This document shows, in pieces, positions 17,816 to 20,130 of a stretch of 64,000 nt of DNA. The translations under genes and the position numbers were made by a program. The notes beneath the pieces are model-generated. The model searched no databases, was not told the DNA's origin, and was given only the letters and a program-made list of their open reading frames with translations. Positions within the stretch are counted from its first letter, which is position 1; the number at the start of each line of letters is the position of its first letter. The stretch spans positions 160,001-224,000 of the forward strand of contig CAVYTU010000014.1 of NCBI GenBank assembly GCA_963771465.1. Reading direction: 5' to 3'. The stretch is from an uncultured delta proteobacterium. Its GTDB lineage: Bacteria; Desulfobacterota; Binatia; UBA9968.

Positions 17816-18550
17816 ATGGAAACCGACCGGCTTACCGCGCTCATTGCCGACTTAGATCATCCCGACAAACCCACCATTCGCGCCGCTGTCGACCAACTGA
17901 TCGGACTTGCCAGAGAGTCCGTCCAGGTGAGGACTGCTCTTGAGCAAAGACTCGTTGAGCTCGGGCATCGAGACTATTGGCCGGTCGCGTACGTTTTAGG
18001 CCATCTGCCCCAGCCATCCGGCGCGACGATTCGAAACTTACTCGACACCTTGGATCATCGCGAGCCGGATATTCGCTGGGCCATCGTTCTCTTGCTAGTT
18101 CGTATCGCCAAGACTGAGAGCTCCATCATCAATCTGCTGATCGAGCTGTGCGAAAATGGGACGACCAATCAGAAACGCATGGCGATCTACGGCCTGCGCG
18201 ACTTGGTCTTGAATGATGTGGTGAGCCTGCAGGCACTTCTAAGCTCACTGTCGGACCCTGACCCAACGGTAAGAGTCGCGGCGGCGACCAGCTTGAAGAA
18301 TCGAACCGACGACGCTGAGCGCGTGCGCGCTGCATTATTACAAAGCTATTTGCTTGATGTGGATATCAAAGTTCGCAGCGCCGCCGCCGTCACCTTGGCG
18401 AATATCGGATTGCCGTCGGAAGAGTTTTTGCGCGCGTTGAAGGAAGCGAGCGAAAGCGACAACAGCCAATCCAAAAAGGCCGCCACCGTCGCTCTCGCTT
18501 TGCTTGAAAAAAGAGAGCCCGCCTCAATCGCCGGCATGCGCCAACGTTGA
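17816..18550 (+). CDS. HEAT/PBS-lyase repeat protein
   Basis: Repeated L.D.DP.VR.AAA..L units (LDHPDKPTIRAAV, LDHREPDIRWAI, LSDPDPTVRVAAA, LDVDIKVRSAAA). Confidence 0.85.
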   Translation: METDRLTALIADLDHPDKPTIRAAVDQLIGLARESVQVRTALEQRLVELGHRDYWPVAYVLGHLPQPSGATIRNLLDTLDHREPDIRWAIVLLLVRIAKTESSIINLLIELCENGTTNQKRMAIYGLRDLVLNDVVSLQALLSSLSDPDPTVRVAAATSLKNRTDDAERVRAALLQSYLLDVDIKVRSAAAVTLANIGLPSEEFLRALKEASESDNSQSKKAATVALALLEKREPASIAGMRQR

Positions 18551-18557
18551 AGCGGGC
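18507..18557 (-). terminator. Intrinsic terminator of the small minus-strand transcript; overlaps the 3' end of the HEAT gene
   Basis: Minus strand reads GCCCGCTTCAAC...ATTGAGGCGGGC-TCTCTTTTTT. Confidence 0.7.
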
Positions 18558-18625
18558 CCGCTAGGTGGTCTGAGGGGGTTTACCAGGCTCTAGGCCCGAA
18601 CCCCTTCAAGAAGTCCGCCTAGAGC

Positions 18626-18667
18626 CTAAGTCTCAGCCACCTCACAGTCAGTACATTTATCAATCAT
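18626..18667 (-). CDS. 13-aa micro-ORF MIDKCTDCEVAET (CxxC)
   Basis: ATG ATT GAT AAA TGT ACT GAC TGT GAG GTG GCT GAG ACT TAG, starting 4 nt after AAAGGAGGTGGTCC. Confidence 0.55.
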   Translation of the reverse strand: MIDKCTDCEVAET

Positions 18668-18699
18668 GTCTGGACCACCTCCTTTCCCTGCTGAAAATT

Positions 18700-18728
18700 A
18701 GTTTACGAAAGTGAATTCGCGCTGTCAA
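18700..18728 (-). promoter_or_regulatory. Sigma70-type promoter
   Basis: TTGACA (18728-18723), 17-nt spacer, TAAACT (18705-18700). Confidence 0.75.
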
Positions 18729-18849
18729 CGGGAAAATTGCTAAGGCAAAATTTCCGCACAGCAAGTGCTGCTAGGATCGACAGATAAAAAGAAGTTGCTG
18801 AAGAAATAAAAATGCCACGTAGCAAGGTCGCCGACTCTGGCCCGCTACC

Positions 18850-19190
18850 GCGCGCGACGATTGATCTGTACTGATGATTATGTTTGGCACGAATTCATTG
18901 GCGGGAGCGATGGCGATGGGAAACCGAAAAGCGGCGTGCAGTATGAGGAGAAATAACGCCCAATCTTGAACCGTGCTGACTTGCAAACAGGCGGCAACTT
19001 AAACGGCGAACCACTGGGACTCTATCGCGAAGGCGTTAATCGAGTTGTGCGCGGTGCATAAATGGCGATCGGAATCTGCATTTGGCCGTTGACCTGGCGA
19101 TGGTCAACGAGCCGCTCTTCTTGCTGGTGACAGACCGCGTCCATCCCAACGACGCCGGCTGAATCGCATTGCCGAAGGCGTCGCGCGTTA
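18850..19190 (+). pseudogene. Degraded SGNH/GDSL hydrolase remnant
   Basis: Fragments LMIMFGTNSLA (block III-like) and LVTDRVHPNDAG (block V DxxH) followed by NRIAEGVAR*, interrupted by stops and shifts. Confidence 0.5.
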
Positions 19191-19252: not shown

Positions 19253-19597
19253 CTAGTTTGCAACCGAGGCCGGGGCGATTTCAACCCGAAGTGAGAATAT
19301 TCTTTTTTCGGCGCGTGGAATCGCGCCCACCCCGACACTCTGGCGCGAGATAAGTTTACCGCTCTCATCGCGCACTTCCATCAAGACGAAATATTCCAAC
19401 ACTTCATTTTCACTGGAATTCTTGAGCGCGCCTTCCACCAGAAGCGCGCAGCGCTTTGGCTGAGCGCTTGGCGCCGCGCCGATGGAAACAAAACGCAGGT
19501 TATGACGGCAGAGCGGACAGGACGCCGCGCTTTTGAGAATCGTCGCCTGGCAGTGCGGACAGCTCCGTGATTCGCCCGCTACCGATACGGCTTTCAT
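19253..19597 (-). CDS. Zn-ribbon protein with a C-terminal beta-sandwich (FxLYD-like) domain
   Basis: CPHC...CPLC, then VEGALKN...EVRDESGKLI...F; ATGA overlap with the bactofilin stop codon. Confidence 0.7.
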   Translation of the reverse strand: MKAVSVAGESRSCPHCQATILKSAASCPLCRHNLRFVSIGAAPSAQPKRCALLVEGALKNSSENEVLEYFVLMEVRDESGKLISRQSVGVGAIPRAEKRIFSLRVEIAPASVAN

Positions 19598-20130
19598 CCC
19601 GCAGCTCCAGCTTTGTCTTTCGGCTGGGCTTGGCCATTGAACTTGGTGGCCTCGGTTGGGCTCCAGCCAAACTCGACATTGCCGCGCATCCGCGATCCCG
19701 CCGCCACGGTCAGCGTCGCGGCCTTGAGATCGCCGATCAGTTGGCCGCCTTCTAGGAGCTTTACCTGCGCACTGGCCACGATGTTGCCATCGACTTCGCC
19801 ACCGATGGTTACGTTGGCAGCGTCAATTTTGGCCGCGACGTGAGCGCCCTTCTCAACGCTAAAGTCGCCTTTGATATGAATGTCGCCTTTGAATTTGCCG
19901 GCGACATGCACGTCGGCGTCACCTTCAATTTTACCCTCGATGGTCACTCCCGGACCGAACACCGAGTTGCGCCGATCCCTCGCTACGTTTTCCTTGGGCG
20001 ACGCGATCGGAGTAACCGGCGTAACCGATGTAACCGGGGTAGAAATTACTGGCGCGGCACTCGATATCGGCTGCGAGGGTTGCGCTTTGTCGTTGCTTCC
20101 CTCTTGCGCGGGCTGGTTCCACAATGCCAT
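19594..20130 (-). CDS. Bactofilin (polymer-forming cytoskeletal protein)
   Basis: GVTIEGKIEG..DVHVAGKFKGDI...NVTIGGEVDGNI...GDLKAATL.V..GS beta-helix; AGGAGG RBS. Confidence 0.9.
   Translation of the reverse strand: MALWNQPAQEGSNDKAQPSQPISSAAPVISTPVTSVTPVTPIASPKENVARDRRNSVFGPGVTIEGKIEGDADVHVAGKFKGDIHIKGDFSVEKGAHVAAKIDAANVTIGGEVDGNIVASAQVKLLEGGQLIGDLKAATLTVAAGSRMRGNVEFGWSPTEATKFNGQAQPKDKAGAAG

Follow-up and report, generated by a model that had tools for sequence, protein, structure and literature searches.

On the minus strand of a 64,000-nucleotide (nt) stretch of DNA from an uncultured delta proteobacterium (GTDB lineage Bacteria; Desulfobacterota; Binatia; UBA9968; contig CAVYTU010000014.1, positions 160,001 to 224,000; the whole stretch is called the window here and all positions follow its own numbering) lies a separately transcribed RNA of about 187 nt, which combines the strongest possible ribosome-binding site with a reading frame of only 13 codons. 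An earlier reading made from the letters of the window (the sequence-only reading) had listed a promoter, a Shine-Dalgarno (SD) sequence, a short open reading frame (ORF), a hairpin, a downstream strand and a terminator, all of which are indeed present on this strand at the positions collected in Table 1, where the helices are named P1, P2 and P3, the 5′ SD is named SD1 and the SD-like hexamer inside the ORF is named SD2. The translation of the mini-ORF is MIDKCTDCEVAET followed by the stop (18667-18626), P2 comprises 11 base pairs plus wobbles, and the 12-nt downstream strand is CTCAGACCACCT (18574-18563). The promoter scan gave the TTGACA/TAAACT pair 10 of 12 matches and found three promoter-like sites in 2.3 kb, as against 0.9 ± 1.0 in shuffled sequences, and the folding energy of the 187-nt RNA (18692-18506) is -97.5 kcal/mol compared with -65.7 ± 4.8 for shuffles (z = -6.6; 0 of 200 as stable). 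A simple terminator scan did not flag the hairpin at 18559-18515, which is visible in the fold. The 5′ end is placed at 18692 because the Rfam match described below begins there, because the AGCAG sequence is conserved and, as a weak hint, because contigs from RNA libraries end at 18685, 18682 and 18678.

The most conserved part of the element is its SD, in agreement with the emphasis that the sequence-only reading had placed on its extreme character. The 14-nt block that this reading had described, AAAGGAGGTGGTCC (18685-18672), is present, and it is the length of the complement that needed correction by one nt: as the organism's own 16S gene ends in ...GGATCACCTCCTTTCT, the 15-nt block GAAAGGAGGTGGTCC (18686-18672) forms 15 contiguous pairs with its own 16S tail, one of them G-U. 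The sequence GGAGGTGRTCC occurs six times in the 6.9-Mb genome and its extended form only at this locus and in the ribosomal DNA itself. In the minimum free energy (MFE) fold the purine-rich SD1 (18672-18686) pairs with the pyrimidine-rich tail (18506-18516), joining both ends of the RNA. The 5-7 nt before the SD are also conserved across phyla in alignment A3, as AGCAGG, CACAGG, ACACAG or CGCAGG, which suggests a conserved start nucleotide or leader. By eye, the GGUCC end of SD1 may pair with GGAC in the ORF in actinobacterial and acidobacterial sequences.

Table 1. Features of the element and of its convergent neighbour in the window. A2 is a MAFFT alignment of 36 rows that was fitted to no structure.
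Feature	Position	Strand	Basis or remark
-35 hexamer TTGACA	18723-18728	-	Sequence and promoter scan; TTGACA kept in aligned relatives
-10 hexamer TAAACT	18700-18705	-	17-nt spacer from -35; TAAACT, TAAGAT or TAGGAT in relatives
Predicted 5′ end (A of AGCAGG)	18692	-	8 nt past the -10 hexamer; inferred
SD1	18672-18686	-	15-nt complement (one G-U) of own 16S 3′ tail; invariant in 36/36 A2 rows
Mini-ORF, 13 codons and UAG	18626-18667	-	ATG at 18667, TAG at 18628-18626
UGU-GAG-GUG (SD2, the internal SD-like hexamer GAGGUG, with preceding codon)	18638-18646	-	Stop codon begins 9 nt past GUG
P1 5′ strand, within ORF	18632-18642	-	Alignments, duplex tests and fold
P1 3′ strand CTCAG-A-CCACCT	18563-18574	-	Resembles 16S tail; partner is SD2
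P2 5′ arm, begins in stop codon	18617-18627	-	A2 alignment and fold
P2 3′ arm	18585-18595	-	A2 alignment and fold
Segment B (GGGGUU), P2 loop	18599-18604	-	5′ strand of pseudoknot P3, or alternatively partner of segment A
Segment C (AACCCC)	18575-18580	-	3′ strand of P3
Segment A	18608-18616	-	Alternative partner of B; lengthens P2
Terminator hairpin, long, G+C	18515-18559	-	MFE fold; hairpin then T-rich tract at equivalent place in relatives
U/C-rich tail, predicted 3′ end	18506-18514	-	Sequence and fold
HEAT-repeat gene, convergent	17816-18550	+	HEAT_2, E = 5.8e-18; 3′ end overlaps terminator

The element is real and conserved. A BLAST search with the 236-nt unit gave a match in 37 of the 41 related genomes, including all 21 of high quality (completeness of 90% or more, contamination of 5% or less), with matches in three families of the order, and a chance origin is thereby ruled out. 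The alignments of these relatives keep the -35 and -10 hexamers, the 5′ AGCAG, the SD block, the end of the ORF and the position of the terminator, the stretch from SD to ORF being the best-kept portion. The homologs conserving SD, ORF and stems for which the sequence-only reading had proposed to search are found in these relatives and in multiple phyla, and its view of a dedicated, conserved stand-alone RNA with a mini-ORF, rather than a leader, is borne out. One of the 37 matches, the unpublished genome G005, also provides one row (L010) of alignments A1 and A2; neither this nor the other unpublished genomes named below is the sole basis of any conclusion. The element is present as a single copy per genome as a rule; two matches are seen in a few genomes (G009, G366, G706, G755 and G239), some of which may be split contigs.

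As regards expression, 18 of the 24 listed sequencing runs that contain part of the stretch are recorded as RNA. Soil metatranscriptome contigs from four runs belonging to four studies span 18383-18682, 18434-18685, 18449-18678 and 18380-18629, and the upper ends of three of the four lie at most 14 nt from the predicted 5′ end. The flanks are partly uncovered by them, which, because these are contigs, is no evidence for a discrete transcript. The RNA evidence for expression is, on the whole, weak but consistent. A contig from a relative's RNA library (run X1, record 3) carries a three-base insertion in the mini-ORF, at window position 18658, together with three substitutions, and reaches upstream beyond the promoter, to 18787.

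What is kept in this short frame is the frame itself and not the peptide, the invariant "Glu-Val" being the hexamer GAGGUG. A pattern scan, with one genome per species, required 12 nt of the SD and, 15-45 nt further on, TGYGAGGTG, and constrained neither start, stop nor frame. It matched at least 119 stretches, and the following counts refer to the 118 untruncated matches analysed among those listed. The stop lies exactly three codons past GUG, with none earlier, at 114 loci (TAG at 103, TGA at six and TAA at five), the four misses being chance matches within long ORFs, and an in-frame start is found 2-8 nt after GGTC at 113 loci (ATG at 41, GTG at 13 and TTG at 59). The ORF is 11-19 amino acids (aa) in length, and is of 12 aa at 84 loci. 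Five loci of an Ignavibacteriales-type lineage (L074, L182, L188, L195 and L196) lack an AUG, GUG or UUG start and have just an AUU in frame, spaced as expected from the SD.

In order to avoid the bias of the pattern, 75 model-derived hits were also fetched and subjected to a strict test, namely SD1, GAGGTG and a stop three codons on, which was passed by 64 of them (by group 28/28, 15/23, 18/20 and 3/4); inspected by eye, eight of the 11 failures keep the frame with a one-base variant of SD1 and three do not fit. Across these model-derived loci only Glu-Val is invariant in the peptide. The residue before it is C in 27, R in 18, S in nine, A, T and P in two each, and K, M, V and E in one each; the N-terminus is variable in both length and sequence, and the three residues at the C-terminus are variable and covary with the 3′ strand of P1. 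The ORF part of A2 contains three indel blocks, all of them three columns long. Since the residue before Glu-Val varies and the C-terminal residues track the P1 3′ strand, the constraint appears to act at the level of the RNA rather than that of the peptide, and we consider it probable that the RNA is translated and translation-coupled.

Three helices are supported by the comparison of relatives. P1 is formed by GGUG of the in-frame hexamer and the next 5-6 nt, paired with the downstream ...CAG(N)CCACC, and P3 by the G-rich segment B of the P2 loop, paired with segment C in the linker before the P1 3′ strand. On A2, 90.1% of the cells of P1, P2 and P3 are paired, compared with 30-52% when the partners are slid, and nine pairs are changed on both sides, as against 5.1 ± 1.2 in shuffled alignments (0 of 500 reach nine). 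These changes are mostly in P2, where 92% of cells are paired and four pairs are changed on both sides, and in P3, likewise with four. For P1, RNAduplex runs across phyla found the partner with many compensated variants, and in an alignment-free test of 34 distinct variable 7-mers the mean self duplex was of -16.9 kcal/mol compared with -15.0 for swapped partners, a value which none of 2000 shuffles reached. This duplex-energy test replaced an unanchored 9-mer complement test of P1, which was uninformative (self 6.72, others 6.52; none of the 67 representatives significant). The sequence-only reading had seen in the downstream strand a switchable anti-SD directed at the SD. This did not hold, as the conserved, covarying partner of CTCAG.CCACC is GAGGUG with 5-6 further nt in the ORF; the 8-bp match of the downstream strand to SD1 is particular to the genus of the window. 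A switch between SD1 and an anti-SD was rejected as a feature of the family, the actinobacterial strand fitting the SD2 region, by eye, far better than SD1.

At its curated thresholds, Rfam gave no family over the gathering score anywhere in the 64-kb window. In a permissive Rfam search the best match was to RF02471, Ms_IGR-5, an Actinobacteria small RNA (sRNA) which is the "IGR-5" of Mycobacterium smegmatis. It runs from 18509 to 18692 on the minus strand and takes in all 184 positions of the model (1-184); the score is 35.3 bits, where the cut-off is 45, with E values of 9e-7 to 2.4e-6 locally and 5.5e-6 genome-wide. This full-length sub-threshold match overturns the statement of the sequence-only reading that no named family could be recognised, and so refutes complete novelty only. 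The blocks GGAAGGAGGUGGUCC, GUGAGGUG and AAU.CC..CAG..CACC are common to the element and RF02471 and are collinear. Like the element, Ms_IGR-5 has a short 5′ leader, an extended SD, a short frame ending in ...GUGAGGUG plus three codons and a stop, a hairpin starting from the stop, the AAU.CC..CAG..CACC strand and a terminal hairpin, and it is stand-alone and usually single-copy; the element differs in its neighbours, in its U-tract terminator, in its score, which is below the 45-bit cut-off, and in its non-actinobacterial host. The Rfam consensus structure of Ms_IGR-5 does not contain the long-range helix P1.

Intermediates connect the two. Model R1, which was built from the clade of the window only, detects loci labelled as actinobacterial, with scores of 22-41 bits, and altogether finds 65 of the 67 representatives (one of these being the unpublished genome G193; L040, L153), and the ORF rule also holds in 18 of the 20 actinobacterial hits derived from RF02471. 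As R1 recovers actinobacterial loci and the rule of the ORF is shared, there is continuity between the window and Ms_IGR-5. The element is very probably homologous to Ms_IGR-5, of which it is likely a distant homolog. For Ms_IGR-5 itself, published texts report validation by RNA sequencing (RNA-seq) in S. lividans (PMC8079986), transcription as a separate sRNA unit in S. avermitilis (PMC8780764), footprints of ribosomes in both M. abscessus and M. smegmatis (PMC4974804), renewed detection under cold stress (PMC10454040) and nicotinamide adenine dinucleotide (NAD) capping in M. smegmatis, where it is termed "validated but yet uncharacterized" (bioRxiv 10.1101/2021.12.14.472595).

Genomes in which this design recurs carry the labels Actinomycetota, Acidobacteriota, Binatia, Rokubacteria, Nitrospiria, Ignavibacteriales and Leptospira. 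By record title, the listed matches of the pattern scan include many Mycobacterium and other Actinomycetota, Terriglobales, Solibacteraceae, Bryobacterales and Rokubacteria, and also Binatia, metagenome-assembled genomes (MAGs) labelled "Deltaproteobacteria", Nitrospiria, Ignavibacteriales, Zixibacteria and Leptospira weilii. RF02471 matches 44 of 151 Actinomycetota genomes (four of them unpublished: G346, G363, G393 and G465), 20 of these over the cut-off, and only two of 151 genomes of the window's own phylum. It was considered too actinobacterium-specific to be informative there and was replaced by model R2. With R2, matches were obtained in at least five of 151 genomes of the window's phylum, its own genome included; these comprise three of the four other genomes of the same class that were sampled (one each from four other families) and one of 146 elsewhere in the phylum. 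In the phylum to which a Terriglobales-labelled MAG belongs, R2 also matched at least 24 of 151 genomes, G193 again among them, and in that of an Ignavibacteriales-labelled MAG at least 55 of 151. The only spirochaete among the listed matches is L088, a divergent copy in Leptospira weilii with a 16-aa frame ending in ...TCEVAEQ, which R1 scores at 22 bits. A contig labelled "uncultured Gammaproteobacteria" (L085) carries a typical mycobacterial-type copy, with the peptide LVDLWTCEVAAS and mycobacterial P1 and P3 sequences, and may be mis-binned.

A second, far weaker Rfam match was to RF01867, CC2171, which scores 16.3 bits (cut-off 75; E = 0.16-0.98). The consensus of this Caulobacter and alphaproteobacterial sRNA opens, like SD1 of the element, with a perfect complement of the 16S tail, ...GAAAGGAGGUGAUCC; at its loci a GUG or AUG start follows a few bases on and leads a frame of 18-25 codons, often with GGGAGGUG near its end, and a CACCUCC-like strand lies downstream, followed by a terminator, again as in the element. 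The longer ORF and a different spacing to the stop set CC2171 apart. R1 matched none of the 18 CC2171-type loci tested, and R2 gave no match in 151 genomes from the phylum that includes a Halioglobus-labelled MAG, which says nothing on absence because there was no positive control there. The element and CC2171 share a design, with no detectable homology. The CC2171-type loci L157-L175 start with the perfect complement GAAAGGAGGTGATCC of the 16S tail and have frames of 18-25 aa, ending for example in ...GTAWEVRL, and one locus among them carries a near-copy of the 16S tail. CC2171 is reported to have been validated by Northern blot in Methylorubrum (bioRxiv 10.1101/2022.01.24.477521).

The neighbouring genes are not shared along with the RNA. 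In the window no same-strand gene follows the element, the next real gene being the convergent HEAT-repeat ORF at 17816-18550, and more than 500 nt lie between it and the end of the nearest same-strand gene upstream; with the downstream gene convergent, the sequence-only reading was right in stating that no gene follows on this strand and that the element is not an ordinary attenuator leader. ORFs within about 2 kb of 144 loci were clustered, the sets containing spurious frames as is usual in G+C-rich DNA. A HEAT-repeat-related ORF lies downstream and convergent at 37 of the 40 window-type loci, whereas actinobacterial-type loci have a same-strand class IV aminotransferase gene just upstream (61/84) and face a convergent THAP4-like heme-binding beta-barrel gene (46/84). 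None of the 12 largest neighbour clusters is common to the two types. Upstream on the same strand the window contains, at 19253-20130, a small zinc-ribbon-like ORF as well as a bactofilin gene (E = 8.6e-22), and about 500 nt with no convincing ORF separate these genes from the promoter of the RNA.

The anatomy of the element, its conservation, the maintenance of its frame, its helices and its lack of a linked gene are all directly observed, and a mechanism may be proposed on this basis. A near-consensus sigma-70-type promoter would produce an RNA with a maximal SD1 almost at its 5′ end, able to form 15 pairs with a free 16S tail, and the start codon, 5 nt past SD1, would open the frame of 13 codons. 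In the free RNA the last five codons (GAG-GUG and three more) would be locked in P1 by the 16S-tail-like strand, with P1 enclosing P2, which begins from the stop codon, and the loop-to-linker pairing P3. Ribosomes very probably initiate at SD1, since the frame is kept and relatives show ribosome footprints, and a translating ribosome would then have to unwind P1 together with the basal part of P2. Once the A site holds the stop codon, GAGGUG, now exposed, would lie 8 nt before the P-site codon, and the ribosome's anti-SD may re-engage with it, which is possible because a spacing of 8 nt is initiation-like. The RNA would thereby capture or hold ribosomes, either a terminating ribosome or a 30S subunit, as a device that titrates 30S or 70S particles or senses the status of translation; it would be the act of translation that matters, the peptide being incidental. 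Among the long stretches, SD1 alone is both invariant and probably unpaired, and its complement is the 16S tail. The ribosome-directed role ("30S-trapping") that the sequence-only reading had suggested may still be regarded as the best reading, although we advance a ribosome-holding or ribosome-sensing function only tentatively. The statement as a whole, that this is an Ms_IGR-5-like RNA of about 187 nt built for binding and brief translation by ribosomes, we put a little short of an even chance. Retention of ribosomes, and any physiological output, are inferred.

A number of points weigh against this interpretation. The RF02471 score is under its gathering cut-off and the host lies outside the actinobacteria, the closest named records being labelled Binatia, "Deltaproteobacteria" or Syntrophobacter MAGs. 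The soil RNA contigs are strandless and may contain DNA or the transcript of the convergent gene. A conserved frame would be expected from a functional peptide too. With regard to the structure, P1 is nearly invariant in the clade of the window, with one pair changed on both sides, and in the alignment-free test self was the best partner in only five of the 34 types. The P3 shuffle test gave 32 of 2000, the pairing being strong in the class of the window and weak elsewhere, and segment B can pair with segment A instead, an alternative that scores similarly to P3 on A2 and makes the pseudoknot a candidate only. RNAalifold on A2 recovered neither P1 nor P2 and gave only 14 pairs (-7.7 kcal/mol), namely a non-covarying pairing of SD1 with the stop-codon region and three pairs of P3; this failure is likely due to gapped MAFFT columns of two families. 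In alignment A4 (57 rows, model-fitted) 85% of cells are paired and 17 of 22 pairs are changed on both sides, counts that lean to the structure because A4 was fitted to it. Finally, the model searches in large samples were strictly filtered, with only about 16-21 candidates scored in each genome, so that the genome fractions given above are lower bounds.

Among other explanations, the element could be a functional micropeptide gene, in which the 11-19-aa product ending in ...E-V-x-x-x is the effector and the strong SD serves only for high output. Such a gene would account for a frame, start and stop kept in 113-114 of the 118 listed matches and in 64 of the 75 model-derived loci, for indels that stay in frame, for synonymous TGT/TGC and ACT/ACC changes, for the frequent acidic residue near the N-terminus and for the ribosome footprints reported for Ms_IGR-5 (PMC4974804). 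It is nevertheless unlikely, given that the codons of the invariant Glu-Val are the SD-like hexamer, that the preceding residue has at least ten identities, including W/R-type swaps which keep the nucleotides GG, that the three C-terminal residues vary freely and track their pairing partner, and that the N-terminus is variable; no processing, export or modifying gene is linked to it, and literature searches with the peptide strings gave no relevant match among those listed, only the fifth string being found, in unrelated texts. A trans-acting base-pairing sRNA, possibly of dual function, in which translation frees the 16S-tail-like 3′ strand of P1 or another segment for the SDs of target mRNAs, likewise has a small probability. 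The stand-alone transcript with its terminator and the anti-SD-like strand masked in cis would suit such a role, as would the annotation of the family as sRNA and its validation by RNA-seq and Northern blot in several species; yet the masked strand, CACC aside, is unconserved in sequence and covaries with the ORF, which makes it a structural strand rather than a seed, and the one long invariant unpaired stretch is SD1, whose complement is the rRNA tail.

A compact fold of three helices and a possible pseudoknot right at the stop codon, the fixed spacing from GAGGUG to the stop and the preference for UAG (103 of 114 stops among the listed matches) would also be expected of a stalling sensor, dependent on the nascent peptide or on a ligand, that holds the ribosome at the stop codon, a small molecule being bound either by the fold of P1, P2 and P3 or by the peptide within the exit tunnel. 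We regard this as improbable: no Rfam riboswitch was found at even a permissive threshold, a specific tunnel sensor would call for a less variable peptide, and there is no regulated gene downstream, which leaves a sensor with no evident output. Least favoured by the data is a cis-acting element, whether an attenuator, a fragment derived from the 3′ untranslated region (3′-UTR) of the upstream gene or an antisense regulator acting on the convergent gene through read-through. It would fit the position of actinobacterial-type loci just downstream of the class IV aminotransferase gene on the same strand (61/84) and the overlap of the terminator with the 3′ end of the convergent gene in the window, and it is highly improbable in view of the conserved -35 and -10 hexamers that the clade of the window has of its own, the distance of more than 500 nt to the upstream same-strand gene, the complete difference of neighbours between clades and the classification of Ms_IGR-5 in S. 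avermitilis as a separate sRNA unit (PMC8780764).

Several further candidates were rejected. The sequence-only reading had proposed a micro-ORF responsive to cysteine, metal or redox state on the strength of a CxxC motif, and this had to be abandoned since neither cysteine is conserved: the first is replaced by S, T or Y within the clade of the window, and the second by R, S, A, T, P, K, M, V or E. A type I toxin-antitoxin system was set aside because the peptide, of 13 aa, is acidic and hydrophilic, whereas such toxins are hydrophobic, membrane-active and of about 20-60 aa, an antisense RNA not having been searched for; so was a precursor of a cofactor or of a ribosomally synthesized and post-translationally modified peptide (RiPP), only Glu-Val being invariant and no neighbour cluster being common across clades. 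An attenuation leader peptide was rejected in the absence of a regulated same-strand gene downstream, and a riboswitch as no riboswitch family was found at E <= 10 in 18300-19000 and none over the gathering score in the window.

Known systems provide partial parallels to the ribosome-engaging RNA proposed here. The leaders of tnaC and of amino-acid operons likewise have a short frame whose translation remodels a downstream structure beside a terminator; unlike these, the element has no downstream gene, no runs of regulatory codons and a variable peptide. The frameshift site of prfB likewise places an in-frame SD-like hexamer at a fixed short distance from a stop, whereas the element has an initiation-like spacing (8 nt to the P-site codon) and neither a slippery site nor an extended second frame, and no frameshift is proposed for it. 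By analogy, 6S RNA and Ms1, sponges of RNA polymerase, are abundant, structured, stand-alone RNAs with a conserved single-stranded part that complements or mimics the core machinery; the element would differ from them in that its putative target is the 16S tail of the ribosome and that the RNA itself is translated.

As far as our searches show, three aspects have not appeared in print: the spread over multiple phyla, the maintained mini-frame, in which an invariant SD lies in frame three codons ahead of the stop, and the masking helix; the founding Ms_IGR-5 paper, the Caulobacter paper and supplements lie outside the literature searched. A phrase search found no bacterial ribosome-sponge RNA among the matches listed, in a literature whose coverage is incomplete and excludes supplements. 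To our knowledge, Rfam has for years listed Ms_IGR-5 and CC2171 as lineage-specific sRNAs without an assigned function.

In conclusion, the element is a variant of a known but functionally unexplained kind of RNA, and it merits experimental follow-up. Its anatomy gives Ms_IGR-5 and CC2171 a shared, testable logic, made up of a maximal SD at the 5′ end, a mini-frame, GAGGUG three codons before the stop and a masking strand, and it takes the Ms_IGR-5 type into phyla under at least six different labels. Since the family occurs in tractable laboratory species, namely in Mycolicibacterium smegmatis, in Streptomyces and, for CC2171, in Caulobacter, the hypothesis is directly testable. A broader proposal, which we offer as speculative and rather doubtful, is that the Ms_IGR-5-type, Binatia-type and (through convergence or very distant descent) CC2171 RNAs form one widespread ribosome-engaging class, with the maximal SD at the 5′ end and a mini-frame in which a second SD, masked by an internal mimic of the 16S tail, makes up the only invariant codons; the class would capture, park or count ribosomes with a free anti-SD. 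If this is true, it could adjust the relative shares of SD-led and leaderless translation or serve as a readout of translational capacity, with the peptide as a by-product. Should ribosomes indeed be held or sensed in this way, the RNA would represent a translation-side counterpart of 6S and Ms1 RNA and a natural probe of very long SD-anti-SD helices.

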